From Pseudomonadota bacterium (lineage in GTDB: Bacteria > Myxococcota_A > Bradymonadia > UBA4248), in assembly GCA_017441205.1 (NCBI GenBank), contig JAFRYG010000024.1, positions 6,046-70,045 on the forward strand: a stretch of 64,000 bases of DNA. Direction: 5' to 3'. The notes below the pieces were generated by a model, which ran no database searches, was not told the DNA's origin, and saw nothing but the letters and a program-made list of their open reading frames with translations. The number at the start of each line of letters is the position of its first letter. The first letter of the stretch is position 1. This document shows, piece by piece, positions 11,262 through 59,026 of this stretch. Made by a program: the position numbers and the translations under genes.

Positions 11262-11561
11262 CACCTACCCCCTGTGCGGGAGTGCCCGCAACGCCCCGCA
11301 AACCTGAATCCCAACAATTTGCCTCAGTTCGCAAAAAGTCTGTTCACTTCACCTCCCAAATCTGATATTCATAAAAAGTATTCTCCGTCAAAACAAATAC
11401 ATGAACTCGCCATTACGCAATTATTTTGTTATGTTGCATAATGTATGGAAGTGAAGAAACGCAGTCTCTGCGCTTCATCGGACATAAACAGTCCATTTTT
11501 GGCGTTTGGTATTGTATCTGCGCCATGTTTGACGCATCACCTCAAGTACATCCGTATTCCC

Positions 11562-15323: not shown

Positions 15324-15356
15324 ATTCTGTTCCCAACTCCAACATAAGCTGAAGAT

Positions 15357-20602: not shown

Positions 20603-20907
20603 AACAATCCTGGAGCAACAATCAAACATCAAAACGAATGCCCGTTTCGAAATCATCCGTCCTGTAAATGGAAATCGTGGAACTGACAAAACCGGAAAAC
20701 CGGGATTCATCCGAATATCCGGAATTTCCGATCACTGTATGGTAATACTAACGATAAATGCGATGTTTTAGAAAGAAAAAATTGAGCAAACATCTTCCGG
20801 AATACGGTCTTTATACTTTACCCTAAAACGTGGATATAATATGATATAATCAGTTCGATATGCCAAAGACTGTCCTCCGCAAGGAAGGCGTGTCTTGAGT
20901 CTGCTCA

Positions 20908-33652: not shown

Positions 33653-33677
33653 AATCCCATTTCCCTATTCCGTATCC

Positions 33678-40535: not shown

Positions 40536-42016
40536 AACCAGCCCATTGTCTCACTCTGATAATTGCAGCCGCATCGCTGTCGCTGAATGCATGTCAGTCC
40601 ACTTCTTCCGGCGAACAAACGCCCGTTTCCGCAGTGCAAAACACCATGAATACCGATTTCAGTCTTCCAGAAATTCCCCCCGCAAAACTCTTCCAGCATG
40701 CAACACCGGAAATCTTCAAACTCGATAACGGCATGGATGTCTGGTACGTACACAACCCGCTCATTCCGCTCATGAGCCTGAAAGTCGTATTCACCCAGGG
40801 CGCATCCATCGATCCTGCCGACAAATCCGGTCGTTCCTCCATGACCGCCATCCTGCTCAAGGAAGGTGCGAACGGAAAATCCGCGCAGCAGATATCCAAC
40901 GAAATTGAGTTCATCGGTGCCACGCTTTCCCCGGCCATCACTCAGGATGCCGCATCCATCACGCTCCAGTCCATGACCCAGTTCTTCGAACAGGGACTCG
41001 ATATTCTCGCCGATATCTGGCTCAAACCATCTTTTGAACAGAGCGCATTCGACCGCATCCAAAAAATCGTACTCAATGGCCTCAAACAACGCGAAGATGC
41101 GCCGACCGCCATCGCAAAGCTCGCCTCTAATCGGGACTATTTCGGCGAGGACCATCCCTACGCCAGATCCGCCGACGGCTACATCGACACCATCTCCGGC
41201 ATGTCCCTCAAAGACATTCAGGAAGCCTATCAGCAGATATTCACACCATCGCGCGCAGCATTTATCGCAGTCGGCAACATTCCGGCCGATGAACTCAAAA
41301 AAATGCTCAACAGCCGGTTCGGTTCCCTGAATATCACGCCGGTTGCCGACGAAATGCCCAAGCCAGAAGTCCCCGCGCCCGTCCGACGTCTCACCATCGT
41401 CGACAAACCCAACGCCCCGCAGACGGTCATCCGCATCTATCAGCCAGCCATCGTAGCCACCTCGCTCAAAACCCTCCCCTGGCAATTCATCAACATCCCG
41501 TTCGGCGGCAGCTTCACGAGCAGGCTCATGCAGAATATCCGCGAGGACAAAGGCTATTCCTACGGCGCAAATGCCGTCGTCGCGTCGCAGAAATTCGCAG
41601 GCGTCCTGCTCTCGACCTCGCAGGTCGCCACCGAAGTCACTGGCGCAGCGCTCAAGGAATTCCTCTATGAACTCGATCGCCTCCCCAAAGGAGACTTCAC
41701 GCAGGAAGAATTCGAACGCGCCCGCGAAACCTGGAAATCCGAACTCGTTCAGTCGTTCGAAACACAATCCGGAGTACTCGCAACCATCTCCAGCCTGTAT
41801 CTCAATCAAAAGCCCGTCGATGCCATCAATGCCTTCGCTCGAAGCCTCGACAGCTTTACGCTCGAACAGTTCAACGAAATCGCACGCGAATTCCCAACCA
41901 TCGATCAGATCAGCATCACGCTGGTCGGCGACAAAAACACCATCCTTGAACAAATTAAGGATATGGCTCTTCCGCAACCGACCTTCAGGGATCTCGAAGG
42001 CAAAATCATTCCGTAG
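40532..42016 (+). CDS. M16-family peptidase, non-catalytic partner subunit (lacks HxxEH).
   Basis: Overlaps the upstream gene by 4 nt. M16 fold-like with signal peptide, but no HxxEH motif. Confidence 0.7.
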   Translation: MKPAHCLTLIIAAASLSLNACQSTSSGEQTPVSAVQNTMNTDFSLPEIPPAKLFQHATPEIFKLDNGMDVWYVHNPLIPLMSLKVVFTQGASIDPADKSGRSSMTAILLKEGANGKSAQQISNEIEFIGATLSPAITQDAASITLQSMTQFFEQGLDILADIWLKPSFEQSAFDRIQKIVLNGLKQREDAPTAIAKLASNRDYFGEDHPYARSADGYIDTISGMSLKDIQEAYQQIFTPSRAAFIAVGNIPADELKKMLNSRFGSLNITPVADEMPKPEVPAPVRRLTIVDKPNAPQTVIRIYQPAIVATSLKTLPWQFINIPFGGSFTSRLMQNIREDKGYSYGANAVVASQKFAGVLLSTSQVATEVTGAALKEFLYELDRLPKGDFTQEEFERARETWKSELVQSFETQSGVLATISSLYLNQKPVDAINAFARSLDSFTLEQFNEIAREFPTIDQISITLVGDKNTILEQIKDMALPQPTFRDLEGKIIP

Positions 42017-42160
42017 TTATGAGTTGGGAGTTATGAGTTGGGAGTTATGAGTTGGGAGTTATGAGTTAAGCAATCGCAAAGTTCCTCGCCAATGAATCAG
42101 GTAAGTAAAGTACCAAGACTTCCAACTAAACTCCCCACACCCAACACCCAACTCCCCACT
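42017..42160. repeat. A tandem 14-bp repeat (TTATGAGTTGGGAG x3.6) plus a nearby partial inverse copy (CCCAACTCCCC). This is the left arm of an inverted-repeat pair whose partner is at 57.03 kb.
   Basis: Direct reading. The reverse complement of 57028..57060 shares an exact 22-mer, GAGTTGGGAGTTATGAGTTGGG, with 42021..42042. Confidence 0.75.
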
Positions 42161-46389: not shown

Positions 46390-48435
46390 ATGAAAGTAAA
46401 CAAATTAATTTTGGCGATATCGACTTTAAGTACGTGTACTTTCTTTGCCTGCGCTGACAGTGTGGATAATCCGCAGTCAGTTGCATGTGATCCCAATTCG
46501 ACCCTCTGCGCAGATAATGATTATCAATTGTCATGCGACGCAGCCGGTTCGGATTACAGCGTTCAGGTATGCGAGCACGGATGCAATTCAGAAACGAACA
46601 CATGCAATCCGGCTCCCGCCGACACGAATACGCATACGCCGCAAAATGCCCCCGGCATCGAAGTAAAGCCGGAATGCCAGGAAGACGATGCTTACTGCTC
46701 CAGCGAGGAAGTGTTAAAAAAATGCCTGGATGGCCGCTATTATGACTTCGAATGCACGGAAGACATGGTTTGTGATCCGGAGAGCCAGGCATGCGTGTTG
46801 GTGTCAGAACTCCCCGACAGCGCATGTGATTCCGATACATTTGAGCCTTCCTGCGATGGAAACATGCTCACAATTTGCCTGGACGATGTCATTGTGCGTC
46901 AGGCATGTGATTCCGCTGATTTGTGTGATGCCGAGCATTCCAGATGCCTGCTTCCCGAACCTCCTTCGTGCGGCGACTGCGCCGACGATGAATTCTGTGA
47001 CGAAAAATCACAGACCTGCATGCCGAAAGAATGTGATCTCGATGATGCGCCCAAATGCGTCAATGGACTCGCCTATAAGTCCTGCGATAACTGGCAGTAT
47101 AAAATCCATTCCTGCGGCGACGGATTAAAATGCAAATACGGTCAATGCTACGATCCCAATGGCGCTGAACCTCAGCCACAGCCAGATCCAGACCCTCAGC
47201 CTCCGGTCACGCCTCAACCCGATCCCGATGAGACTGGCACCAATGCCGGATATAATTGTCCTGCCGGACAGATCACCGTCTCCGACAGTGAACTGAAAAC
47301 ATTCTGCGTTCTGGATCCCAATGAACCTCTGGGTGAAGTCAAAGGAAAATCACAGTATTACTGCACGCCCGGTGCCATCGAAGGCCGCTACTGCCGCACT
47401 GTTCCCGCCGAGAATCCAGACTCCAGAGTTTCTATGAAACCTGGACAGAAATGTACCGAAGAACAGCTCAATCCCGCAAGCAACACGCTCAGAGTCCATA
47501 TCATCGACGTCGGACAGGGCGATTCCATCTGGATTCAGACCCCAACCGGACAGAATGTCCTCATCGACGGCGGCGATACCGGTGCCTTCGGAACCGCCGG
47601 CGGACCAATCGTCCACGATTATCTCACATTCCACGGCTTCCCCGCCGGCAGTGAATTCGACGCCGTATTCCTCACCCATCCGCACGCCGATCACTACGGC
47701 GGTCTGGCCAATATCTTCAATAAAGATAAGGATACGAAAAAAGTTAAATACGCCCACGGGATGAAAAATTACATCGATCCCATGGAACCTCAGACCACAG
47801 AAGCTGTCCCGACCGGATATATTAACTGGATTAAGAAAGTTCATAAATATCTGGACAGCAGCCACATCTATATGCCGGCTGAGGATATGTTCAGCACGAC
47901 CACGCCGATGCCCGAAGAGTTCTTTGGTCCCGAGGCCAAGGCCTACTTCATCAGAAGCACCAAAAAGCTTACAAACGCCGCAGGAAAAGCTGCGAATAAC
48001 AATCGCGCATCCATCATGTTCCAGCTCACGTATGCCGGACGTTCGTTCATGTTCACCGGTGATGCCGAAGTAGAACAGGAAGCAGAAGCTATCAGCAAAT
48101 CCCCGGATCATATCGCATCGAACTTCCTCAAGGTCTGCCATCACGGGTCGCCTACATCTTCGAGCGTAAAATTCCTCGATGCCGTTTGGAATTCTATCCC
48201 CAAGGCTGACCGGTATGCTCTGATTTCCAGCGGTCGCGGAAAATTCAGCGGCACATATATTCCCGCCGTCCCAATCCTCGACAGACTCATGTCATACCTG
48301 GAACCGGATCACCTCTACAGCACTTCCGTCGGTGACGACGATAAAACCGAGTCCGAAGCCTATCGCGATGACAACATCCTCATCGTCGTCAAACCCGATG
48401 GCGATTATTACGCCTGCTACGCAGGAACCAATTAA
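46390..48435 (+). CDS. Secreted lipoprotein: N-terminal Cys-rich repeat modules, a Pro-rich linker, and a C-terminal metallo-beta-lactamase fold (ComEC/Rec2-like).
   Basis: Start re-set to MKVNKLILAISTLSTCTFFACADS. At least four Cys-rich modules (e.g. 'CDPESQACV', 'CDEKSQTCMPKEC'). Linker PQPQPDPDPQPPVTPQPDPDE. MBL motifs 'IIDVGQGDSIWIQTPTGQNVLIDGG' and 'VFLTHPHADHYGG'. Confidence 0.65.
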   Translation: MKVNKLILAISTLSTCTFFACADSVDNPQSVACDPNSTLCADNDYQLSCDAAGSDYSVQVCEHGCNSETNTCNPAPADTNTHTPQNAPGIEVKPECQEDDAYCSSEEVLKKCLDGRYYDFECTEDMVCDPESQACVLVSELPDSACDSDTFEPSCDGNMLTICLDDVIVRQACDSADLCDAEHSRCLLPEPPSCGDCADDEFCDEKSQTCMPKECDLDDAPKCVNGLAYKSCDNWQYKIHSCGDGLKCKYGQCYDPNGAEPQPQPDPDPQPPVTPQPDPDETGTNAGYNCPAGQITVSDSELKTFCVLDPNEPLGEVKGKSQYYCTPGAIEGRYCRTVPAENPDSRVSMKPGQKCTEEQLNPASNTLRVHIIDVGQGDSIWIQTPTGQNVLIDGGDTGAFGTAGGPIVHDYLTFHGFPAGSEFDAVFLTHPHADHYGGLANIFNKDKDTKKVKYAHGMKNYIDPMEPQTTEAVPTGYINWIKKVHKYLDSSHIYMPAEDMFSTTTPMPEEFFGPEAKAYFIRSTKKLTNAAGKAANNNRASIMFQLTYAGRSFMFTGDAEVEQEAEAISKSPDHIASNFLKVCHHGSPTSSSVKFLDAVWNSIPKADRYALISSGRGKFSGTYIPAVPILDRLMSYLEPDHLYSTSVGDDDKTESEAYRDDNILIVVKPDGDYYACYAGTN

Positions 48436-48465
48436 TATATAACAAAATAATATATAACAATACGC

Positions 48466-48513
48466 AGCCCCTGTGGATATGACTTGTTCATATCCACAGG
48501 GGCTAAAATTTTG
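48466..48513. terminator. Rho-independent terminator.
   Basis: Hairpin AGCCCCTGTGGATATGA..TCATATCCACAGGGGCT followed by AAAATTTTG. Confidence 0.6.
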
Positions 48514-48514
48514 T

Positions 48515-48668
48515 ACAGACGTGCGAACCACACGTCTCTTCTAAAAATGAATATGCCACGCGCCTTCAGGGCGTGGCTGATTTTTTATATATTAACCCGG
48601 TAATAATCGCGAATCGCACGTTGCTTCTAAAATATACAGACGTGTCGCGACATGTTTCTTATAAAATC
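48515..48668. repeat. Array of four hairpin units of the 'AGACGT..ACGTCT-CTTCTAAAA' family, plus GCCACGCGCCTTCAGGGCGTGGC.
   Basis: Direct reading. The units are ACAGACGTGCGAACCACACGTCTCTTCTAAAAA, CGCGAATCGCACGTTGCTTCTAAAATA and ACAGACGTGTCGCGACATGTTTCTTATAAAATCG. Confidence 0.6.
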
Positions 48669-48676
48669 GAAAACCA

Positions 48677-48973
48677 TCATTTGCGTTTTGGATTGCAGGG
48701 ATACCACCCTCGCTCCACGCGTTTTTTCTGATGATAAAGCTCAACGATGCACCAGAAAAATGTGCATCCCAGAATGCCAAGAATCCCCGAAAGTACCGTC
48801 GACTGAGCAAATAGCGCAAATCCCAGTGTGATACATCCCAAAACAGCAAAGAGCGGCCAACATTTTGTACCCCAGTAATACTCAGCCTTGATCACAATCG
48901 GATGAAATACGCCAATAATAACAAATGATACAATTGCTATCACAATACCGCTAAAATTCAGCTCTTCGAACAT
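48677..48973 (-). CDS. Small (98-aa) integral membrane protein.
   Basis: Three predicted TM helices. Hypothetical. Confidence 0.35.
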   Translation of the reverse strand: MFEELNFSGIVIAIVSFVIIGVFHPIVIKAEYYWGTKCWPLFAVLGCITLGFALFAQSTVLSGILGILGCTFFWCIVELYHQKKRVERGWYPCNPKRK

Positions 48974-48993
48974 AAAACTCCACTAAAACATTT

Positions 48994-49124
48994 TGTCTGC
49001 CGTATTCGCCCCGCGAATAGGCAGACACAGGCCGTGTGTGAAACAGCGGCCAACTGCAAAAAGCGCTGTCTGCCGTATTCGCCCCGCGAATAGGCAGACA
49101 CAGGCCGCGTGTGAAACAGCGGCC
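48994..49124. repeat. Two direct copies (58 bp each, period 73 bp, one mismatch) of a double-hairpin unit (GTCTGCCGTATTCGCCCCGCGAATAGGCAGAC + GGCCG.GTGTGAAACAGCGGCC).
   Basis: Direct reading. Confidence 0.8.
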
Positions 49125-49141
49125 TGCTCATAAAATATCTA

Positions 49142-49912
49142 TTATCCCGGTCCGTAACTGCGTACGAAATTCGGGCGTTCCTCTGCCGGAGCATCTTTTT
49201 CCTTGCGAGGTTTGTAGGCTTTCATGCCGACCTGAGTCATGCCCTTTTCGGTAAAGATGAACAGCGTATTCTTTCTCGAAAGCAGGTCCGCAGTAAGTTT
49301 CGCCGTCGAATTTTTAATATGCCACGGGCTGTCTTCGGTCGGTTCCGATTTCGTAATCTGATCCCAGGGACACAAATAGAATATTTCCTCGAGGAAATTC
49401 CTGAAATCGTTGACAAAATTGACGCTCTGAACATCGATGAATTCAATATTGCCAATATGAGTCTGGCGCATTTCGTCGATCATATCGGTTGCTTCCGTGA
49501 GCGGCAAATCCGCCACATCGAAATTCAAATCGCGCTCCAAGTCGTAATAACGCTCAATCTTCGGGATATTGCGCAAAATGAATTGCGGCGTGCATTCGAC
49601 GACCTGATCATCGACGTCGTTGGGACGTTCGATTTTTGAAGGTTCTGCCGACGATTCGAGCTCCATGCGATGAAGTTCAAAAACATGATTCGCAAAAACG
49701 CTGTAGTCCTGACATATTGGCTTTTCGATATGTACGGATTTCGGCAGCTGACGCACCGAAAGCGCCATATTTTCATCAGCAAAAGCCCATCTCCAGAATC
49801 CGCATTCCGGGCGATGATGGCGACTGGCGAGGTCTTCCGGTCCGAGATCTGCAAAAACTATCGTCATATCGACAGACGACGAATCGGGTGTTTTTACGGT
49901 ATCTTCGGACAT
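49142..49912 (-). CDS. Hypothetical acidic cytoplasmic protein (256 aa).
   Basis: Intact ORF. No recognisable motif. Confidence 0.3.
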   Translation of the reverse strand: MSEDTVKTPDSSSVDMTIVFADLGPEDLASRHHRPECGFWRWAFADENMALSVRQLPKSVHIEKPICQDYSVFANHVFELHRMELESSAEPSKIERPNDVDDQVVECTPQFILRNIPKIERYYDLERDLNFDVADLPLTEATDMIDEMRQTHIGNIEFIDVQSVNFVNDFRNFLEEIFYLCPWDQITKSEPTEDSPWHIKNSTAKLTADLLSRKNTLFIFTEKGMTQVGMKAYKPRKEKDAPAEERPNFVRSYGPG

Positions 49913-50039
49913 GATATGCCTTTTCGATTATTAACTGGCTCTGTCCCCCGAGCGCAGCCATATACTCTCATCTTTTTATTGCTCATGATTACGAATAACC
50001 ATGATTGGCATTCATTGTAATCACTACGGCGCCATGGAT

Positions 50040-50205
50040 GGCGGCGAGAGGCGAGGGAGGCATGTCCAGGGATGGACATTCGACCCGCAACTACGATTGC
50101 ACTGAAAAGCGTGCGGGGGATGTAGGGGGTGTTCACAACCGAACACCCCCTGCCGCGTAAGCGTAAAAAATCAAGCACCCGCGCTGCAAAGCGCGAATGC
50201 AAAAT
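50040..50205. repeat. GC-rich REP-like palindromic cluster (GGCGCCATGGATGGCGGCG; GGGGGTGTTCACAACCGAACACCCCC; GCACCCGCGCTGCAAAGCGCGAATGC).
   Basis: Direct reading. Confidence 0.5.
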
Positions 50206-50220
50206 ATATAAAGTTATATA

Positions 50221-50436
50221 TTATTTATCGCCGTCCGACCCGACGCTGACGCTCGTATGGACTTCTTCTTCCTGCTGATAATATTCACTTGTATAATTGC
50301 ATGTGCGGACGATACCGAGAGCTTCCTCGATCTCCTTTGTCACTTCCATGCATTTTTTTCCCTTAAAACCAACGGGATGAATTTCGACAGAACCATCCGG
50401 ATTGATGGAAAACTCAATTGACTGTTTTGTTGCCAT
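50221..50436 (-). CDS. DUF2997-family small protein.
   Basis: The 71-aa sequence 'MATKQSIEFSINPDGSVEIHPVGFKGKKCMEVTKEIEEALGIV...TSEYYQQE' matches my recollection of DUF2997 consensus (small, conserved Cys, C-terminal acidic tail). Confidence 0.55.
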   Translation of the reverse strand: MATKQSIEFSINPDGSVEIHPVGFKGKKCMEVTKEIEEALGIVRTCNYTSEYYQQEEEVHTSVSVGSDGDK

Positions 50437-50468
50437 CTTATGTTCCTCTCTTCGCGATTAATTCTATT

Positions 50469-50864
50469 CTAGCCCCAGCGCGTTGCCGTCAGTTTGATGA
50501 CGTTCGTCACTTTGTCTTCTTCCATATCCAGGGTGTAGTGCTTCTTCTTCAGTTCCTTGACGACCTTGTGATAAGCATATCGCTGCTGGAGCTGATTGAC
50601 GAACTGCTGCTCATTGACGCCGCGGGTTGCTTCGACGCCCCACCAGTCGGCGAGAAGTTCACATCCATTTTCATTGATGCGCAAACCGACATCATATTTG
50701 CCGCTCACTTTGATAGAAATATCGGCTTTTTCGAGCTGCTGATTGTAACCACGAACATTGACGCCTTCTTCCGAATGTACGCACTCGTAGCCGAGATCTT
50801 TAATTGCCTCGAGGATACATTCAAGATCTTTCATCTTGGATTCAACGGTTGAAAAATGACTCAT
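50469..50864 (-). CDS. DUF1257-family protein (Ycf35-like).
   Basis: 'MSHFS..........L..L..A..DLG' at the N-terminus and 'QRYAYHKVV' near the C-terminus are characteristic of DUF1257/Ycf35 as I recall it. Lies 32 bp upstream of the DUF2997 gene. Confidence 0.55.
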   Translation of the reverse strand: MSHFSTVESKMKDLECILEAIKDLGYECVHSEEGVNVRGYNQQLEKADISIKVSGKYDVGLRINENGCELLADWWGVEATRGVNEQQFVNQLQQRYAYHKVVKELKKKHYTLDMEEDKVTNVIKLTATRWG

Positions 50865-50920
50865 ACTATTCCCTCAACTTAAATCAGTAAAAGTCCCGGC
50901 ATTTTGCCGGGACTGCTCAA

Positions 50921-52474
50921 CTACATCTCAAGATGGCGAATTTGCTTGTCTTCGCTGCTGCTGCCCTCTTCGTCCAGGCTTGCGCGGCGTGCACGGCTCT
51001 TGGCCCAGTCGCGCATGTAATCGATGCGTTCTTTCATCTGATAGGAAAGCGGAATGATTTCGTTGCAGCTGCGAACGACGCTGTCGGTATCGATATCCTT
51101 CTTGGCTTCATACGCATCGAACAGAGAAGAAACGATTGCCTGTTCAATTTCGGATCCCGAAAATCCCTGCGTTGCAGCGACGATGCGCGGAATATCAAAA
51201 TCCGCGACCTTTCGGTTCTTCTTGATGATGTGGATCTCAATGATCGTCTTGCGTTCTGCGGGGCTCGGAAGATCGACGAAGAAGATTTCGTCAAAACGGC
51301 CTTTACGAAGCAATTCCGGCGGAAGCATCGAAACATCGTTCGCCGTAGCGATGACGAATACCGGGCTCGTCTTTTCCTGAAGCCACGTAATAAAGGAACC
51401 GAAAACGCGTGCGCCCGTGCCGCCGTCCGTCGATCCGGACGACTTCGTTCCAGAAAATCCCTTCTCCAACTCATCCATCCACAGAATACACGGCGCGACG
51501 GCTTCTGCCGTTGCGATGGCTTTGCGCATGTTCTCTTCCGAAGAACCGACGAGGGATGAAAACACCTTGCCGACATCCAGACGAAGCAGCGGCATCTTCC
51601 ACAATGCACCGACGGATTTTGCAGTCAGTGACTTTCCGCAGCCCGGCAATCCGAGCAGCAGAATGCCCTTCGGCAATGGAAGTCCGAACTCACGGGCCTT
51701 CGAACTGAAGGCAAGATTACGCGTCTTGAGCCAGCTCTTCAGAATCTCGAGACCACCGATATCGCGAAGCTTCAAATCGGATTGATAGAACTCGAGCAGA
51801 CCATTCTTGCGGATGAGGTTTTTCTTTTCATCGACGATCGTCTCGATATCGAAATCGTGTTTGATGATCAGGCTCTTCGAGAACACGTTCGAGGCTTCGA
51901 CTGCCGTCAGACCGAGAGCTGCTTCGACGACTTTTTCGCGGAAATACGGATCATTGCGTACCTGCTGGCAGAGATCATCCGGAACGCTCTTGAGTACCTG
52001 GAGAACCAGCTCATTGATAACGGTTCGGTTCGGGAGATCATAATCGATCACGCTGACTTCCTTTTCGAGTTCCGCAGGAAGTTTGAATGTCGGGCTCAGA
52101 AGCAGCACGTGCTTCTTGTAGCGACTCGTTTTGAACTCGCGGCTCAGATCACGAAGTCGGCGCGTAACCTGAGGATCCGACAAATACGGATGAAAATCCC
52201 TTAGCACGAACACGGCATCATTTTCGTAACGGAAAATATGCTCCATTGCGCGCTGTGGATCGCGGATATCGTTAAATGTATCGCCATCGCCCCCCTGGAA
52301 CCCTTCCGTACACGACCAGGTCACAAAACGACGATTACGGCGTTCACAAATTTTGCGAAGATTATTTTCAACACGCTCTTCTTCCGTACTCGTGACATAT
52401 AAAAGAGGATACCTTGCACGAATCAGATACTCAATTTCCTCTTCTGAAGAAACATTCGCTCGAATTCCTTCCAT
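50921..52474 (-). CDS. AAA+ ATPase with an ~270-aa N-terminal domain (Ycf46-like).
   Basis: Walker A 'LLLGLPGCGKSLTAKSV'; Walker B 'ILWMDELEK'; sensor/Arg-finger region 'VIATANDVSMLPPELLRKGRFDEIFFVDLP'. A single AAA module at the C-terminus. Confidence 0.85.
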   Translation of the reverse strand: MEGIRANVSSEEEIEYLIRARYPLLYVTSTEEERVENNLRKICERRNRRFVTWSCTEGFQGGDGDTFNDIRDPQRAMEHIFRYENDAVFVLRDFHPYLSDPQVTRRLRDLSREFKTSRYKKHVLLLSPTFKLPAELEKEVSVIDYDLPNRTVINELVLQVLKSVPDDLCQQVRNDPYFREKVVEAALGLTAVEASNVFSKSLIIKHDFDIETIVDEKKNLIRKNGLLEFYQSDLKLRDIGGLEILKSWLKTRNLAFSSKAREFGLPLPKGILLLGLPGCGKSLTAKSVGALWKMPLLRLDVGKVFSSLVGSSEENMRKAIATAEAVAPCILWMDELEKGFSGTKSSGSTDGGTGARVFGSFITWLQEKTSPVFVIATANDVSMLPPELLRKGRFDEIFFVDLPSPAERKTIIEIHIIKKNRKVADFDIPRIVAATQGFSGSEIEQAIVSSLFDAYEAKKDIDTDSVVRSCNEIIPLSYQMKERIDYMRDWAKSRARRASLDEEGSSSEDKQIRHLEM

Positions 52475-52584
52475 TGACGTCTGCTCCTGGCTGCTGGTGA
52501 ATCAAACATGACCAAAAGTCATGCTAAAATCTGTTTTCGTTTATTAATCAGCCGAATCCGTGCGTTCACAGACCAGCTCAATTC

Positions 52585-54618
52585 CTACATCTGCAGTACG
52601 CTGCGCATATCCTTAAGCTTGTCCTTGATCTCCGCAAGCGAGTTCTGACCGGAATCCAGTGAACTGGCGATATCCTCAAAAATAATTTTGGGATCGTAAT
52701 CCTTCAGAACGTTCTCGAGGCGCGTTTTTTCCTGGCCCACGAGCTTAGAAACATCGATCTTCACATAAGCCACGAACACGCGCTGAAGATCCGTAATGCT
52801 TGCATCGAGCATCTCCAAATCGCTGCGCCACTGGCTCACGACATCATTGATGTCGGAATACAGCCCCTTGACGCGTTCAAGCAGGCCACTGTCTGCGCCG
52901 CCCGCCGACTCGCGAAGCGAGGCAATTTGTGCTTCAGCATCGCGAAGCGATTTTTCAAGTGCGGCCACGCGTTCACTGCTGTCGCCGGACTGCATGGATT
53001 CCAGCTCGTGAATGCGATCCCTGAGCCGCTGCACATCCTCATCCGAAGCACTTTCTGCAGCGCTCAGCTGTTTCTGCAGCAACTCCGCCTCACTCGTCTT
53101 GCGGTTCAGACTTTCCCTCACCTGTGCAAGTTCCTGGAGCAATGCTGCACTGTCTCCGCCGCCTTTTGAACGCAGTGAATCCTGCAGCTGCCGAATCTCG
53201 CGGGCGCGATCATTCAGATTACCCTTGAGCTCGCTGAACATGACCTCATGCTGTTCGACGACCTTCTTCATATCGCGGTTCCGGCGCTGGCTCTCTTCGA
53301 GAGATGCATTCAGCGTATCGACATTTTCTTTCAGGCGCTCGACATTCTCGCGCTCTTCCTTGCACGAAAACTGAGCAATATCGAGTTCGCGCTGCAGCTC
53401 TTCCAGGAGGTGATTCTTCTTCGTCAGCTGAACCTTCAAATCCGCTATCGCTGTCTCCGCATTCGATGTCGCCATCCCCTTCGATTCCAGCGTTTCCTTC
53501 AGCGTCTGAAGCTCCATCTTCAGGGATTCCGCCTCATCCTGCGATGTAACGAGATCGCGGCGGCACTCCTGGTACTGCTCTTTCTGGTGATCGAGCTGTT
53601 CCTTGAGCTTGTCGATCATATCCTTCAGACCGGTCACGACCGTTTCATGATATTCATTCCGACGCTCATAATCCGTCAGAATCTGATCGCGCTCATCCAG
53701 CTTTTCCTGAAGTTCCTTGATCACATCGCCATTGCCGGCGCCGGCGCGAGCTTCCTCAAGATCGTGCTTCAGCTTGGCATTCTCTTCCTGAAGTCTGCTG
53801 ACTTCATCCGATGCCGCACCGGAATTATAGGGTGCCCGGGATCGCTGCTGCCCCGATACCGGTTGCTGCGATGACATCGGCTGCTGCATACCCATCGGCT
53901 GCTGCATACCCATTGGCTGCTGCTGGGGTGACATCGGCTGCTGCATACCCATTGGCTGCTGCTGGGGCGACATCGGCTGCTGCATACCCATCGGCTGCTG
54001 CATGCCCATCGGCTGCTGAGCAGCCATCGCCTGCTGGGATGCCATCGGCTGCTGCATACCCATCGGCTGCTGCATACCCATCGGCTGCTGGGGTGACATC
54101 GGCTGCTGCATACCCATTGCGCCCTGCTGAACCGGCCTGCCCATCGGACTGCGATTGTCCTGCTGGTAATTGCCGCGGTTCGAAACCGGGGCCGCCGAAT
54201 AGCCACCGCGATTGTACTGCTGCTGGTACATCGCCGGATTCTGCATCATTCCTGGTGCCATCGGAATCTGATCTGCCATCCGGGGAACATTATCCGCACC
54301 GCCGTCTCCAACGACGCGTATCGAAAAATTCCCGCACAACAGCTCACTGCCCACGAACAGCTCAAGCACCTCTCCCGGCTGAAGCCGCATTCCGTCTACT
54401 TTCGTGCCATTCGTCGGCCTGCTGTTCGGCGGATCCTGTACAAAAAGTTTCCCATCCCGCCAGGTCACCATCGCATGAACTCGGGATACCGACGCGTTCG
54501 TCGTCTGAACACCGCAATCCGGATTGCGGCCTATCATAACGACATTCTTGCGCTCATTGAGCTCTACAGCTTTCTCCCAACCATTTTGATCGTTGTATAC
54601 TAACTTTACCAAGGACAC
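52585..54618 (-). CDS. FHA-domain protein with a Q/M/P-rich low-complexity tract and a ~350-aa coiled coil.
   Basis: The N-terminal ~105 aa form an FHA domain ('VMIGRNPDCGVQTTNASVSRVHAMVTWRDGKLFVQDPPNSRPTNGTKVDG'). About 20 'QQPMGM' repeats follow. The C-terminal half is heptad-rich (LQEENAKLKHDLEE...). Confidence 0.75.
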   Translation of the reverse strand: MSLVKLVYNDQNGWEKAVELNERKNVVMIGRNPDCGVQTTNASVSRVHAMVTWRDGKLFVQDPPNSRPTNGTKVDGMRLQPGEVLELFVGSELLCGNFSIRVVGDGGADNVPRMADQIPMAPGMMQNPAMYQQQYNRGGYSAAPVSNRGNYQQDNRSPMGRPVQQGAMGMQQPMSPQQPMGMQQPMGMQQPMASQQAMAAQQPMGMQQPMGMQQPMSPQQQPMGMQQPMSPQQQPMGMQQPMGMQQPMSSQQPVSGQQRSRAPYNSGAASDEVSRLQEENAKLKHDLEEARAGAGNGDVIKELQEKLDERDQILTDYERRNEYHETVVTGLKDMIDKLKEQLDHQKEQYQECRRDLVTSQDEAESLKMELQTLKETLESKGMATSNAETAIADLKVQLTKKNHLLEELQRELDIAQFSCKEERENVERLKENVDTLNASLEESQRRNRDMKKVVEQHEVMFSELKGNLNDRAREIRQLQDSLRSKGGGDSAALLQELAQVRESLNRKTSEAELLQKQLSAAESASDEDVQRLRDRIHELESMQSGDSSERVAALEKSLRDAEAQIASLRESAGGADSGLLERVKGLYSDINDVVSQWRSDLEMLDASITDLQRVFVAYVKIDVSKLVGQEKTRLENVLKDYDPKIIFEDIASSLDSGQNSLAEIKDKLKDMRSVLQM

Positions 54619-54721
54619 TTCTCCTTCTTAAAGCGCAAAAGGAAACTACCTCTGTTTTAATGCATTCTCCCCTCTTTTGTCCACACTCCGTTCAAAAATC
54701 CAACGACCATTTGGTAAATCT

Positions 54722-54822
54722 CATTTTTTTGTCACGGGCGCGGCTATCCCGGCTCCGCCGGAATACGCCCGCGCTCGGGCCGGCTATGCGCCTCACGGCG
54801 CATACGCCCGCCCCTATTATTT
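54722..54822. repeat. REP-like GC-rich palindromes with CGTATG/CATACG cores (GGAATACGCCCGCGCTCGGGCCGGCTATGCGCC; CGGCGCATACGCCCGCCCC).
   Basis: Direct reading. Confidence 0.55.
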
Positions 54823-54823
54823 C

Positions 54824-56707
54824 TTATTCAATCGCATAGCGAATCGTCAGCTCAAACGTCTCCGGCGTCGTCCCCAGATCTATCCCCAAATGAAAATTGC
54901 GCTCCGGATCCGCGTCCTGCCACGTAAGCCCGCGCTCACTCACATCCAGATGAAGCAACGATGATCCGCTCTCGAGATCCTTGCCTTTGACTTCCCCCAG
55001 AAGGGATTTGTCCGAAGCCACCAAAACCTCATCTTTTGTGACCTCAAGCTCCGCCCCGTAATCCACATCGTCATCCGCTATCTCCAGATCCGCATCGCTG
55101 TAGTCCGGTGCTTCCTCCGGATTGTCTGCAGCCTTCTTCACTGGCTGATTCCCGAATTCACGCTCAAGACGCTCGTCCGCACTCTCCGAAGAAATCACAT
55201 CCGTCAGAATCGCCAAATCCGCGGCTCGTTCCCCGCGATACAAAGCCGCATATTTTCTGGGATCACCAATATTCCCTTCGTACAGCGCTGCTCCGATATA
55301 ATGTCCTCCATGCGCGATGCGCCTCAGTTTCCCGATATCCGCATCATCCTGTGCAAAAATGTGATTCAGCGCCTCCAGTTCCGGACACTTAAACGGATCC
55401 TGCTTTACCGCATCGCGGTACGAATCCATCCCCGCAATGATCTGCTCTGCAGGTACAGACAGCCAGGCCTCCGCAAGCGGCTTATCCCCTGACGCCGAAA
55501 ACTCCAGTTTCTGCGCCTGCCAGTTCAGTAACCCCCAAATCCACGGCGAAACCTTGGGAACGAAACTCACAACCGTATCAAATCCCAGTACACTCCCCCC
55601 CGAAACCGGCTTTACCTGAAACGTTATCTTCGGAATATTCGATGCAATCCGGCGAAGATCCTTTACACACGCCATTTCCAGTGCCGCACCCCCGTCACTG
55701 CTGAACTTCTTCGCCGTCTCCTGAATTGCAACGAGCTGATTCAGCGCACCGTTAATATCAAACATCCCCACGATACACGTCGAATCCGAAATGCCAAGTC
55801 CGCTCAGCTGCGCACGCGCCGTCTGCCCCTGCGCAGGAACTGCCAGAAGCTCCGGCAAAAGCTGACTCGCGTGCTCATCATCACTCACAACCGTGACGAT
55901 GACATGATCCTTGCCCCAATAAAATGCAAGTTCCCCCTTCTTTCCCGGCGATATCTCCACGAGCGACCAGTGCGAGGTATTCTTGTCCATCTCGCGCATC
56001 TTCACTAGATTCTGCGTCCAGTACGACTCCACGATCTTCCGGAACTTGGGCACATCCTCGAGCGATACCTTCAGTACCGGCGTCTGACGCACAAAATACA
56101 AGACAAAATGCGACATCTGCCTGCCCATAATCCCAATTGACTTCAGCTTCGCCGGCGAAAATGAACGAAATACCCCCTTCAAAAAACCACGAACCGAGGT
56201 TTCAAAGGCCGATCCGGAATCCGGTACTGCCTTCAGATTTCCCATCACGAGGTTTGATGCATGCTTCATGAAATCTTCAACATCCGCTCGCTCAAGATCA
56301 AAATCTCCTGCAGATGCCACCAGCAAAAAACTTCCCCCGGGAACCGTATCCAGCAGCGGATTCATTGCAATTCCCGCCTTTTTCGCAAATACAGGACGAT
56401 AATTGCTTACACCGTACACTCGCTTTTCCTGCACGCCGGAATCTGCTGCCCCCTGCGACTCCGCAGCAGCTTCATCCAGAATCTTCAGCGAATCCTCTGC
56501 CGGAACATCTCCCTGAACATCCGCGTCAGCCTGAATCGCCGCAGGATTCTCTTCCGATTTGGCGACCTCATCCCTGACGGCATCATCCGTTTTCTTGCTG
56601 CACGAAAAACTGAACAAACACAATAAAATGCAAAAAATGCCGCCTGCAATATGAATCGATCGCATTGACTTATCTCTTCTCATCCGCATGTTTTCCAAAA
56701 ATGACAC
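54824..56707 (-). CDS. Hypothetical lipoprotein (~610 aa).
   Basis: The N-terminal hydrophobic segment ends in 'FSFSCSKK' (lipobox-like). The body has no recognisable family. The start may be M at 56665. Confidence 0.35.
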   Translation of the reverse strand: MSFLENMRMRRDKSMRSIHIAGGIFCILLCLFSFSCSKKTDDAVRDEVAKSEENPAAIQADADVQGDVPAEDSLKILDEAAAESQGAADSGVQEKRVYGVSNYRPVFAKKAGIAMNPLLDTVPGGSFLLVASAGDFDLERADVEDFMKHASNLVMGNLKAVPDSGSAFETSVRGFLKGVFRSFSPAKLKSIGIMGRQMSHFVLYFVRQTPVLKVSLEDVPKFRKIVESYWTQNLVKMREMDKNTSHWSLVEISPGKKGELAFYWGKDHVIVTVVSDDEHASQLLPELLAVPAQGQTARAQLSGLGISDSTCIVGMFDINGALNQLVAIQETAKKFSSDGGAALEMACVKDLRRIASNIPKITFQVKPVSGGSVLGFDTVVSFVPKVSPWIWGLLNWQAQKLEFSASGDKPLAEAWLSVPAEQIIAGMDSYRDAVKQDPFKCPELEALNHIFAQDDADIGKLRRIAHGGHYIGAALYEGNIGDPRKYAALYRGERAADLAILTDVISSESADERLEREFGNQPVKKAADNPEEAPDYSDADLEIADDDVDYGAELEVTKDEVLVASDKSLLGEVKGKDLESGSSLLHLDVSERGLTWQDADPERNFHLGIDLGTTPETFELTIRYAIE

Positions 56708-56834
56708 ACCTTCACTACGGGCTCTCTATTACAGGCAACCGCACCGCAGATGTCCAGAAAAATCACTCGTTTTTCTTCGACAAAATCAAATGCTCTTATA
56801 ACAAGAGAGTCGATAACCTCAAAGCCGCTTTGTT

Positions 56835-57066
56835 GTTCGTAGCTTTGAGTTTTGAGTTTTGAGAGGTGAATGAATGACCTGAGAATGAGAATTGGACTGA
56901 GAACAAGAAGACGACTGATGTTAGTGAATAGTGAATAGTGAGTAGTGAATAGTGATGAGAATTTATAGCTTATAGAGAGGGTCGATGTTATCTGTACTTT
57001 AGCAAAAGTCTCGGTGATTGCTTTACGCCCAACTCATAACTCCCAACTCCCAACTCATGATGAGCC
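56835..57066. repeat. Simple-sequence block (TTTGAGTTTTGAGTTTTGAG; GTGAATAGTGAATAGTGAGTAGTGAATAGTGA) ending in CCCAACTCATAACTCCCAACTCCCAACTCATGA. This is the right arm of the inverted-repeat pair with 42.02 kb.
   Basis: Direct reading. A 22-bp exact reverse-complement match to 42021..42042. Confidence 0.75.
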
Positions 57067-57121
57067 ATAAAAAAAAGAGCACCCTTCCGGGTGCTCTCTG
57101 CAATTTCAAAGAACTTATGGA

Positions 57122-59026
57122 TTAAAATCCAATATCAAAGTCTCCGCCAAAATCCATCCAATCTGGAATTTTGGTACACGTATCCCAGTCAATATTATCA
57201 AGTCTATCTAATACAGTTAAGATATCAGCGCCAAGATCTTCAGCCCACTCCTCTACACATTCCTCTCCGAGATCATCATAGTCTTCCGCATTTCCACCTT
57301 CACTGACAAATATACCTATGAGTTTTGAGTCACCCGACTCTAAGTCAGCACAGGTCTTAAAGGTTTTCATTACATTCAGGAATTCCGCCTTGGTTTGCGG
57401 ATAATTATCACATATATTGCCGGAAACTTGTTTCGGCACGCAGGCGCCAGACTGCGGATCGCACGCTTGGTTTTCATTGCATATCGAAGGATCCTGAACG
57501 CACGACGAGGAAACTTGTTTCGGCACGCAGGCGCCAGACTGCGGATCGCACGCTTCGTCGCTCTTGCAAATCGAAGGATCCTGAATGCAGGTAACATTTC
57601 CGACGCCCCCTTTCGGCACGCAGGCGCCAGACTGCTGATCGCACACTTCGTCGCTCTTGCAAATCGAAGGATCCTGAATGCAGGTAACATTTCCGACGCC
57701 CCCTTTCGGCACGCAGACGCCAAACACCTTGTTGCATTCCTCATCGGCACCGCATTGACTGCTATCCGAACATGCCTTGCCCTCGCCGATCACGACATCT
57801 TCAAATACGCCATCGAAGTACTCGCACTTAAACACGTTAAATGCATTCGGATCGCCTTCAATATTAATCGAAATCCCTTCTATCCACTTATCGCCGCAGG
57901 CATCCTGGATGGCATCCCAATTACTCTCATTGATACCCTCGCTCGCCGCAATAGGTAAAATGGCATCCAGCTTGTTATCGAGATCCTGGCATGATGATGC
58001 ATTAAGAATCGCATTCACCAGTGCTTCCTTGGTCTTGGGATAAGCATTACAGTCAATACTTGCAGGCTGCTGACTTGCCTGACACTGGCCATTCACGCAC
58101 TGACCGCCATTGCAAATCGAAGGATCCTCTGTGCAGGTTTTGGCCGGCTGTTCCGGATTATTGGGAATACAGAATCCCTTGCTGCATGTCGCATCGGCAC
58201 CACAGTTCAGAACAGAACATGCGTCCACACACTCACCACTTGAGCAGAACTCGCCGACATTACATACCTTCTTCGCGCAGGGATCCAGATTCATTCCATA
58301 AATGCACTTTACTTTGATTTCTTCAAGCTTGAGTTCAAAAGCCGCACGATCTGCCTCAGGTACATTCTTGAACCGCCACTCTTCGACACATTCATCAAAT
58401 GAACATGGTACGTCGCTTGCGTCAGGACATGTACTTTCCATCAAATCGAGATACTGACTCTCTATGGGATAGCGTGCATTGATCTCCCCCAGACTCTTCG
58501 ATAATGATTCGCACTCCACCTCAGATGCCATGACGACTCTATACACTTCGTCATATAATTCCTGAATCTTCAAACCACTCGGAATGGAACATTCGGTGCC
58601 GACTTCTTTTACCGCTTCTTCTTTTCCTTCCTTGTACCAGTCAAAACTCGTAACCTCCTGATTGCTCTCGCATTTGGAAATATTCTGCTGCAGAATTGCA
58701 ATCTGTGCCTTCAGATTGGGATCATTATAATTGTCGCCAGACAACAGCAAACCATTCGATTTTTTCAAAACCTCTGCAACAATATCACACCATGCTTTGC
58801 TGCCGGGTTCCGCTGTTGCGCCTGCTTTTGCAACAGCAACCGACACTTCCGACACCATTGCCGCAGCCTCCGATTCCGATGGAGCAGACGTGAGCTTCTT
58901 ACCGACATCCTTGGGGCTGGCAGTTCCACCCGAACCACCACCACCTTCGTTCACTTCCGTCTCAGAGACATCACACGAAAACATGCAAAGTGACAACAAA
59001 ATCGACAATATGGTTAACTTCTTCAT
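57122..59026 (-). CDS. Cys-rich repeat lipoprotein with tandem near-identical ~30-aa modules.
   Basis: Lipoprotein signal (LSLCMFSCDVSE). The modules read 'CVPKGGVGNVTCIQDPSICKSDE(V/A)CD(Q/P)QSGA' x2, followed by two diverged copies. Many further Cys pairs. The module is shared with the 46390..48435 protein. Confidence 0.6.
   Translation of the reverse strand: MKKLTILSILLSLCMFSCDVSETEVNEGGGGSGGTASPKDVGKKLTSAPSESEAAAMVSEVSVAVAKAGATAEPGSKAWCDIVAEVLKKSNGLLLSGDNYNDPNLKAQIAILQQNISKCESNQEVTSFDWYKEGKEEAVKEVGTECSIPSGLKIQELYDEVYRVVMASEVECESLSKSLGEINARYPIESQYLDLMESTCPDASDVPCSFDECVEEWRFKNVPEADRAAFELKLEEIKVKCIYGMNLDPCAKKVCNVGEFCSSGECVDACSVLNCGADATCSKGFCIPNNPEQPAKTCTEDPSICNGGQCVNGQCQASQQPASIDCNAYPKTKEALVNAILNASSCQDLDNKLDAILPIAASEGINESNWDAIQDACGDKWIEGISINIEGDPNAFNVFKCEYFDGVFEDVVIGEGKACSDSSQCGADEECNKVFGVCVPKGGVGNVTCIQDPSICKSDEVCDQQSGACVPKGGVGNVTCIQDPSICKSDEACDPQSGACVPKQVSSSCVQDPSICNENQACDPQSGACVPKQVSGNICDNYPQTKAEFLNVMKTFKTCADLESGDSKLIGIFVSEGGNAEDYDDLGEECVEEWAEDLGADILTVLDRLDNIDWDTCTKIPDWMDFGGDFDIGF

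Follow-up and report, generated by a model that had tools for sequence, protein, structure and literature searches.

Ycf46 and Ycf35, long named as hypothetical chloroplast reading frames, occur as conserved proteins in cyanobacteria, plastids of the red lineage, and many phyla without photosynthesis, and ycf46 and ycf35 rank with the cyanobacterial genes most strongly induced by stress. To our knowledge, neither protein has an established biochemical activity, partner, or substrate. Here, members of both families were analyzed in a 64,000-nt stretch of contig JAFRYG010000024.1 (assembly GCA_017441205.1), referred to as the window, with coordinates numbered from its first letter. In this locus, a gene for an FHA/coiled-coil protein lies directly upstream of a Ycf46-family AAA+ ATPase gene, which is followed by genes for a DUF1257 (Ycf35-like) protein and a DUF2997 mini-protein (with the ATPase, the triad) and then by a gene named X. 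Comparison of gene order and phylogeny across genomes indicates that the FHA/coiled-coil gene was recruited to this position once and has been kept there since, often with X downstream.

The closest described counterparts are the cyanobacterial and plastid Ycf46 proteins (slr0374, Synpcc7942_0417), which belong to the same family as the window ATPase and share its N-domain and single AAA module. Since the cyanobacterial proteins align to its residues ~11-517 at 43-45% identity, "Ycf46-like" is a tested statement. In all 11 cyanobacterial loci, a gene for a small protein precedes ycf46, and DUF1257 (116 aa) lies directly downstream, as in the window; this DUF1257 has the same invariant MSHF N-terminus, and Ycf46 the same P-loop cysteine. 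The cyanobacterial system differs in having no FHA gene, no gene X, and no DUF2997 detected within 8 kb of ycf46. Its three-gene arrangement matches the published stress-responsive operons slr0373-slr0374-slr0376 of Synechocystis and Synpcc7942_0416-0418, and the cyanobacterial system shows stress, blue-light, and ppGpp/RpaB-dependent induction as well as a CO2-utilization phenotype (PMC7496141; bioRxiv 10.1101/2025.07.21.665879). Synechocystis DUF2997 clusters with another ycf35 copy and the ferredoxin Fed7 (PMC4284462). A preliminary description of the window locus had stated that the triad has no assigned biochemical function, and none was found on record in the searchable literature; what is published on DUF1257 and DUF2997 is sparse, with no treatment of FHA among the matches listed.

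The locus comprises the following features:

52585-54618, minus strand: FHA/coiled-coil gene (677 aa, GTG start; Pfam FHA, 2.5e-11)
50921-52474, minus strand: Ycf46-family AAA+ ATPase gene (517 aa; Pfam AAA, 2.6e-28)
50469-50864, minus strand: DUF1257 (Ycf35-like) gene (131 aa; Pfam, 4.4e-21)
50221-50436, minus strand: DUF2997 mini-protein gene (71 aa; Pfam, 5.2e-17)
50175-50200, minus strand: terminator-like hairpin (consensus scan and sequence reading)
49142-49912, minus strand: gene X, 3′ of DUF2997 (256 aa, no Pfam family)

Judged against curated Pfam gathering cut-offs, the first four proteins all exceed the required score. For the two small ones, which the preliminary description had assigned to DUF1257 and DUF2997, the values are 75.5 bits versus 22.2 (PF06868) and 61.9 bits versus 24.1 over the full model 1-47 (PF11211), respectively. 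That description also holds exactly for the positions, strand, and lengths of the open reading frames (ORFs) and for the spacers of 110 bp (FHA-AAA), 56 bp (AAA-DUF1257), and 32 bp (DUF1257-DUF2997). Close homologues of all four genes occur in the same order in other genomes, so the four are genuine genes rather than spurious reading frames. The AAA gene carries its own Shine-Dalgarno sequence. The hairpin, an 11-bp stem with 7 G-C pairs followed by TTGATTTTTT, begins 21 nt past the DUF2997 stop codon and, as a pattern match, probably marks where the FHA-AAA-DUF1257-DUF2997 transcript ends in this genome. It is the sole well-placed site of its kind, the totals of promoter and terminator-like sites in the region not being above shuffled expectation, and an Rfam scan of 48000-58000 found no RNA family.

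Distribution of the FHA-ATPase gene pair

A genome scan with a 15-sequence ATPase alignment returned 80 loci spanning Myxococcota, Armatimonadota, Verrucomicrobiota, Planctomycetota, Cyanobacteria, Sumerlaeota, KSB1, Nitrospinaceae, and Actinomycetota, together with two archaeal-labeled metagenome-assembled genomes (MAGs); taxon names are the labels on the source records. ORFs were called in the fetched loci and searched with hidden Markov models (HMMs) built iteratively from the window proteins. In 17 independent Myxococcota loci, AAA-DUF1257-DUF2997 is immediately preceded, on the same strand, by an FHA/coiled-coil gene (the window, L001, L004, L007, L011, L012, L013, L014, L016, L018, L024, L029, L048, L092, L093, L094, and L095). 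Intergenic gaps in these loci range from -4 to ~230 bp and are -4 to 30 bp in many, and the genes beyond the FHA-triad cluster vary from locus to locus. Three further loci have no upstream sequence.

When 89 ATPases were placed in a neighbor-joining tree, those linked to FHA grouped in a single clade, the only other member of which comes from a contig lacking upstream sequence. Anaeromyxobacter, Archangium, and one Kofleriaceae contig fall in a second Myxococcota clade, which is without FHA. Because the FHA-linked ATPases are monophyletic and this second clade has no FHA gene, the coupling arose once and follows the paralogue. An FHA gene occupied the upstream position in none of ~70 loci of other phyla, so the link is a lineage-specific add-on rather than a general property of the triad.

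The number of FHA genes is itself variable. In loci labeled Kofleriaceae or Haliangiales, four tandem FHA genes stand before the ATPase gene: three extra ones, encoding proteins of ~260, 500-650, and 154 aa with C-terminal FHA domains, precede the FHA/coiled-coil gene. Such four-FHA loci are L012 (2723-7955 and 10206-11503), L029 (332-7953 and 10268-11629), L013, L016, L024, and L048; in L012 and L029, a DUF4157/"eCIS_core" protein and a pentapeptide-repeat protein are encoded 3′ of DUF2997, replacing X.

Across many phyla, at least the ATPase and DUF1257 are conserved, which bears out to that extent the earlier view of a triad reaching from cyanobacteria to non-photosynthetic bacteria. DUF1257-DUF2997 is next to or near the ATPase gene in 8/8 Planctomycetota loci, and DUF1257 is so placed in 5/10 Verrucomicrobiota loci, four of which (not L068) also have DUF2997; neither family was found within 8 kb of the ATPase in any of 12 Armatimonadota loci. 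In Cyanobacteria, the upstream protein is 110-130 aa long, is encoded ~100-200 bp before ycf46 (L072, L073, L077, L080, L081, L083, L088, L090, and L091), and has a "KVTLYLPxxLHRxLK" start resembling a ribbon-helix-helix (RHH), a CPxC zinc-ribbon-like motif, and an invariant C-terminal ELVPC. It has no Pfam match, and its PDB profile matches are weak (CopG-family RHH, 0.061; SvtR, 0.09). By its motifs it looks like a ribbon-helix-helix plus a zinc ribbon, and it is probably the slr0373 family. The slot 5′ of the ATPase gene is thus exchangeable, with an RHH/zinc-ribbon-like protein in Cyanobacteria and FHA in the Myxococcota clade.

Protein components of the locus

The ATPase consists of two parts:

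51779-52474 (aa 1-232), minus strand: family-specific N-domain
aa 233-517, minus strand: AAA module and C-terminal helix (Pfam AAA at aa 271-401, 2.6e-28)

Its nearest database relatives are 94% identical, and one at 87% is labeled "Bradymonadales bacterium"; identity over the full length is 60-65% across Myxococcota orders and 43-50% between phyla. Solved relatives cover aa 233-496 only, the best being the D2 domains of Cdc48/p97/VAT (E down to 8e-54). The motifs are Walker A GLPGCGKS (275-282), Walker B D334-E335, sensor-1 N379, and arginine fingers R390/R393, and among 41 diverse family members Walker A (GxxGCGKS), Walker B (DE), the sensor-1 Asn, and both arginine fingers are near-invariant. 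Judged by these motifs, the ATPase is one intact classic-clade AAA module joined to a family-specific N-domain of ~230 aa, in agreement with its earlier description as a Ycf46-like AAA+ protein with a large N-domain. Pore loop 1 reads L308-V-G here and L/I/V/Y-V-G in the 41 members. The NCBIfam models CDC48, FtsH, PAN, CdvC, Mpa, and IteA score 52-99 bits versus cut-offs of 500-1008; with all curated scores so far below their cut-offs, the ATPase is none of these. Membership in the Cdc48/VAT, PAN/Mpa, FtsH, and CdvC/Vps4 groups was rejected also on the N-domain, which in Pfam and PDB matches none of the types characteristic of them, namely, a double-psi barrel, an OB/coiled coil, a membrane anchor plus protease, or MIT; the C-terminus, read from the sequence, ends in ..HLEM without an HbYX motif.

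The first ~232 residues of the ATPase have no Pfam family and no significant PDB sequence relative. When the N-domain alone (aa 1-235) was searched against 1.84 billion representatives in 50%-identity clusters, it found 3,789 clusters at E<=1e-3 and 1,629 at E<=1e-10, mostly proteins of ~500-550 aa. Profile comparison (hhalign) of the N-domain with its own AAA module gave E 0.0037 at 9% probability, in a register that places "FVLRDFH" on Walker B, "LLLSP" on sensor 1, and "GLTAVEA" on the lid, a hint that the N-domain could be a degenerate AAA fold.

The D2 domain of p97 has a P-loop cysteine, and an oxidative off-switch is known there. By analogy, an oxidative off-switch is possible at Cys279 of the window ATPase (codon 51638-51640), which lies within Walker A GLPGCGKS and is kept in most family members. 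It corresponds, through mapping by homology, to Cys269 of slr0374, and the slr0374 tryptic peptide 260-271 of Synechocystis is listed among redox-responsive sites (PMC13214033).

DUF1257 and DUF2997 have no solved structural relative by sequence. The AlphaFold2 (AF2) model of DUF1257 is confident, with a predicted local distance difference test (pLDDT) score of 91.6, and presents an alpha+beta sandwich. The N-terminal M-S-H-F of DUF1257 is invariant in Myxococcota, cyanobacteria, KSB1, the archaeal-labeled MAGs, and some Planctomycetota. It is lost in Verrucomicrobiota and some Planctomycetota, in which a hydrophobic N-terminal segment of ~30 aa stands instead (L031, L034, L037, L039, L054, L060, L061, L068, L069, and L082); this segment probably anchors the variant in the membrane. 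DUF2997 has one nearly invariant Cys in GxxC and a conserved T-x-E-[YF]-Y motif, and its gene adjoins that of DUF1257 wherever it was detected beside the ATPase. Close relatives show a ~10-nt overlap between the two genes, suggesting translational coupling and a stoichiometric DUF1257-DUF2997 complex. On comparative evidence, the two are an obligate pair, usually encoded beside this ATPase. A KSB1 MAG (L053, 5356-11627) has three tandem Ycf46-like paralogues of 614-628 aa, with DUF1257-DUF2997 between the first and second.

All three core families have viral homologues in PHROGs (DUF2997, phrog_23133; DUF1257, phrog_20456; ATPase N-domain, phrog_8638). A scan of IMG/VR gave 452 confirmed DUF1257 relatives, for 80 of which (L096-L175; marine, GC 32-40%) neighborhoods were kept. 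DUF2997 lies directly upstream of, and overlaps, DUF1257 in 77/80 of these viral loci, and the ATPase is present in only 2/80. The cultured T4-like cyanophages P-SSM2 (PSSM2_178/179) and P-SSM5 likewise carry the DUF2997-DUF1257 pair without the ATPase. Found alone in viruses, the pair is a self-contained unit movable without the motor, and this autonomy is easier to reconcile with a cofactor or regulator than with a substrate. The P-SSM2 pair (L176, 147491-148070) lies ~2.7 kb downstream of a gene annotated as ferredoxin. A Ycf46-like ATPase including the N-domain (26% identity, aa 12-230) is encoded by Mycobacterium phage Catdawg gp97 (L177, 59669-61447), and the same type occurs in 33 other mycobacteriophage records (Corndog-type), annotated merely as "AAA-ATPase".

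The FHA/coiled-coil protein has four regions, the last two given together:

54325..54564 (aa ~19-98), minus strand: FHA domain (HMM envelope and alignment of 13 orthologues)
53833..54303 (aa 106-262), minus strand: Q/M/P-rich linker with "PMGMQQ"-type repeats
52588..53832, minus strand: coiled coil (aa ~263-560) and C-terminal helical region (aa ~561-677)

The Pfam FHA match at aa 28-93 scores 44.2 bits versus a cut-off of 20.7. The residues that bind phosphothreonine are kept (G-R31, S45-R-x-H48, and N70-G71), and nearly all of 13 orthologues retain GR, SRxH, and NG; with the binding residues intact, phosphothreonine binding is predicted. The DNA encoding the linker (Q 26%, M 18%, P 15%) is tandemly repetitive at 53860-54117, with a period of 18/54 nt; the linker is lineage-variable, with unrelated composition across orthologues, e.g., R/S/D-rich in L007. 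The region that follows gives sub-threshold matches to the ATG16, HOOK, crescentin rod, and SMC families, consistent with the long coiled coil first ascribed to this FHA protein. A C-terminal block, "INDxxSQWR...LRxLR", is conserved from Bradymonadales to Kofleriaceae; the orthologues are 21-42% identical, yet have in common the FHA domain and this C-terminal helical block.

No comparable constancy was found for kinases. The window has one ORF with a Pkinase domain (27408-29396, minus strand), ~22 kb from the operon, and no pseudokinase by Pfam or kinase HMM; the preliminary description, which had counted an active kinase and two pseudokinases in the window, is not upheld in this respect. A kinase or PP2C gene lies within 8 kb in 5 of 13 scanned FHA-linked loci (kinase in L001, L011, and L029; PP2C in L007, L024, and L029), and PP2C also occurs in L092 and L093, at positions that differ between loci. 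This co-occurrence is not clearly above the background of kinase-rich Myxococcota. The idea of an FHA system with its cognate kinase and phosphatase in the locus was rejected, the only Pkinase gene of the window being 22 kb away. Of the proposed neighborhood of FHA and kinase genes around the triad, the FHA part holds in the 17 Myxococcota loci and in none of the examined loci of other phyla, and the position of the kinase is not conserved.

X homologues directly follow DUF2997 in L001, L004, L007, L011, L018, and L092-L095. X is present in all Bradymonadales-type loci and absent from the Kofleriaceae/Haliangiales loci of the FHA clade; in L094, where a 776-aa gene is inserted, DUF2997 and X are displaced together. 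The gap before X is 308 bp in the window versus 0-60 bp in relatives. An identical copy of X occurs on contigs from metagenome assemblies labeled XIEF21; this and the ATPase relatives above place the window in a Bradymonadales-like (Myxococcota) MAG. The protein has no Pfam family and no solved structure by sequence, and its AF2 model, built with 31 homologues, was left out of the fold search because its pLDDT is only 55. It has a conserved motif "PQFxLRN" and, in the subclade of the window, a conserved extreme C-terminus [FY]-G-P-G. This tail, [ST]-[FY]-G-P-G (49142-49156), comes after a charged low-complexity linker, is missing in distant X orthologues, and could be a docking or recognition tag. 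The Thr of the X sequence "TPQF" was considered as an FHA ligand and rejected as evidence, being E, S, or Y in other orthologues. Just 3′ of X, two tandem 69-nt copies (48994-49062 and 49067-49135; 91% identical), each holding the palindrome TGTCTGCC...GGCAGACA, look like a repetitive extragenic palindromic (REP)-like intergenic element.

Proposed mechanism and rival explanations

With moderate confidence, mechanism included, we read the locus as a vertically inherited chromosomal operon encoding a Myxococcota-specific, FHA-coupled, and phosphothreonine-gated variant of the ancient Ycf46/Ycf35/DUF2997 remodeling module. In this model, the ATPase would act as a hexameric protein remodeler or unfoldase, and a DUF1257-DUF2997 heterocomplex would bind its N-domain as a universal cofactor/adaptor or regulator. 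The FHA/coiled-coil protein would form a dimeric scaffold, the FHA heads of which read Thr phosphorylation from unlinked Ser/Thr kinases and the C-terminal helices of which dock on the ATPase, such that remodeling might be switched on, or clients delivered, only once phosphorylation has occurred. X would be a candidate client or extra cofactor, and the P-loop Cys C279 may add redox control. By analogy with slr0373-slr0374-slr0376 and Synpcc7942_0416-0418, the output would probably be a stress or growth-arrest response. The phospho-regulated AAA+ module suggested in the preliminary description survives in part: FHA is not an accidental neighbor, being tied to one clade in 17 loci, but the link is lineage-specific and its kinase side is unsupported. 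That description did not mention gene X, the hairpin 3′ of DUF2997, or the viral DUF2997-DUF1257 copies.

Several points weigh against this model. Each mechanistic step is drawn from domains and gene order, and conservation of gene order inside one phylum is partly explicable by shared ancestry. No kinase or phosphatase gene is positionally conserved near the FHA gene, and for L007, L092, and L093, where a PP2C gene lies 2-4 kb upstream, local synteny may be explanation enough. Pore loop 1 of the family is mostly aliphatic (L/I/V), with Tyr in the minority, so processive unfolding is not assured; the D1 ring of p97, in which pore loop 1 is likewise mostly aliphatic, translocates weakly. The fold of the DUF1257 model yields no functional clue. 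In the window, the terminator-like hairpin and the 308-bp gap part X from the operon, and the X model reaches only the low score given above.

A wider version of the model is doubtful, in our estimate: Ycf46 and DUF1257-DUF2997 would be a universal stress-gated remodeling switch with an exchangeable input, namely, the RHH/zinc-ribbon protein in cyanobacteria or one to four FHA readers in the Myxococcota clade. DUF1257-DUF2997 would then be a new class of AAA+ adaptor, with the free MSHF N-terminus of DUF1257 and the DUF2997 Cys as functional center, and the cyanophage pair would capture or silence host Ycf46.

It is also conceivable, though unlikely, that the relation of the two proteins is reversed, the FHA/coiled-coil protein forming phosphorylation-controlled filaments, bundles, or condensates for which the ATPase is the dedicated disassembly factor. 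Classic-clade AAA+ ATPases typically take apart helical or coiled-coil assemblies: NSF disassembles SNARE bundles, and Vps4/CdvC disassemble ESCRT-III. The weak matches of the scaffold to crescentin rod, SMC, and HOOK-type coiled coils, its Q/M/P-rich repeat tract, and the strict FHA-ATPase gene pairing inside the clade are consistent with an NSF/Vps4-like relationship. However, the composition of the low-complexity tract is not conserved between orthologues, and neither an MIT-like nor a SNAP-like recognition module is present. Moreover, many phyla have the ATPase, DUF1257, and DUF2997 but no such coiled-coil partner, so disassembly of the scaffold cannot be the core job of the motor.

Alternatively, the locus would be an ordinary ycf46-like operon in which the FHA gene is an inherited syntenic neighbor, functionally uncoupled, and we regard this as quite unlikely. 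The FHA link is limited to one phylum-level lineage, being absent in the ~70 loci of other phyla; no kinase is conserved; and in the window a 110-bp gap and a separate Shine-Dalgarno sequence precede the AAA gene. Yet Bradymonadales-, Kofleriaceae/Haliangiales-, and other Myxococcota-type genomes keep the adjacency and orientation although all other flanks have changed, and the gaps shrink to -4 to 30 bp in many loci. In addition, the number of FHA genes expanded exactly here in the Kofleriaceae/Haliangiales-labeled loci, and the FHA-less second Myxococcota clade shows that the link goes with the paralogue rather than with the taxon.

A role in anti-phage defense or conflict, whether as an IetA-like system or as a new pairing of FHA sensor with AAA+ effector, is very improbable. 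PADLOC IetA models do match the ATPase (1.2e-25), as does NCBIfam IteA_antiphage, and all three core genes have phage homologues; but the IteA score of 77.3 bits compares with a cut-off of 510 and covers the generic AAA module only, and no IetS-type protease gene adjoins the operon. Identity of the ATPase is maintained over its full length within Myxococcota and between phyla, and the operon is embedded in conserved chromosomal synteny, beside M16 peptidases, xseA, and infC, with no integrase, transposase, or other island hallmark. These features point to a vertically inherited cellular function.

The preliminary description had placed the genes inside a 15-kb segment bounded by repeats. The repeats exist: a 14-nt unit occurs x3.8 at 42015-42067, with an imperfect inverted copy at 57024-57058. 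The segment is not a unit, however, since in L011 an M16-M16-TPR block abuts X-DUF2997-DUF1257-AAA-FHA as in the window; except for a metallo-beta-lactamase/DUF4491 pair that has been inserted, the interval thus represents ancestral synteny. That the genes are cargo of a mobile genomic island we consider next to impossible: the inverted copies of the 14-nt repeat give five matches versus 0.02 expected by chance, but they are ~30-50 nt of short, 7-nt-periodic intergenic microsatellite, no integrase, transposase, or other mobility gene lies between them, GC content and skew are unremarkable, and L011 keeps the same M16-M16-TPR/X-to-FHA junction.

Other genes of the window have features of their own. 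The ORF at 57122-59026 (minus strand) encodes a Cys-rich, lipoprotein-like protein without a Pfam family, and within it, at 57422-57722, tandem repeats of 87-93 nt encode "CxQDPSICKSDExCDxQSGACVPK" modules. At 33513-35861 (plus strand), an MgsA/WRNIP-type AAA+ protein (RuvB_N, AAA_assoc_2, and MgsA_C) carries a C-terminal S-adenosylmethionine (SAM)-methyltransferase domain, a fusion that is unusual, provided that the ORF is one gene. Also encoded, at 1811-3082 (plus strand), 19274-20710 (minus strand), and 11445-19130 (plus strand), are two serpins, which bacteria seldom have, and two TPR proteins of ~1,260-1,290 aa with DUF3857, the first of these TPR proteins also with a transglutaminase-core domain and the second with DUF3858.

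Comparison with known systems

Nothing is overturned by these results; rather, a module without assigned function gains testable partners and a testable input signal. The FHA variant suggests a concrete regulatory input, Thr phosphorylation, and bait proteins (the scaffold and X) for a long-unsolved module, and culturable heterotrophs in the same orders (Bradymonas, Haliangium) sidestep the complication of photosynthesis. The occurrence of the pair alone in cyanophages points to a testable role in host takeover.

With the Cdc48/p97/VAT proteins, the window ATPase shares Walker A/B, sensor-1, and the arginines of the second region of homology, and its AAA module is nearest their D2. It differs from them in having one active AAA module, an N-domain with no sequence relative detected in PDB or Pfam, a mostly aliphatic pore loop 1, and a CDC48 score of 99 versus 803. 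Likeness to IetA of the IetAS system is that of a generic AAA protein (PADLOC, 1.2e-25): the window protein falls below the 510-bit threshold, has no IetS protease beside it, and is vertically inherited. In type VI secretion, the PpkA/PppA-Fha1-ClpV proteins provide a precedent in which an FHA scaffold reads Thr phosphorylation and controls an AAA+ protein of the same locus. The resemblance is in logic only, as the window locus is without type VI secretion genes or a linked kinase/phosphatase pair, and ClpV is of the Clp/Hsp100 type, unlike the classic-clade, single-ring ATPase described here. The cyanophage DUF2997-DUF1257 pair belongs to the same families, with adjacent and overlapping genes and ~30-35% identity to the window DUF1257 over its full length, but has the reversed gene order and, except in 2/80 loci, no linked ATPase/FHA gene. 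The three core families and the ycf46-ycf35 link were already known, though uncharacterized. New here are the clade coupled to FHA, in which FHA genes number one to four, as well as gene X, the interchangeable slot upstream of the ATPase gene, and the scale of the viral pair.

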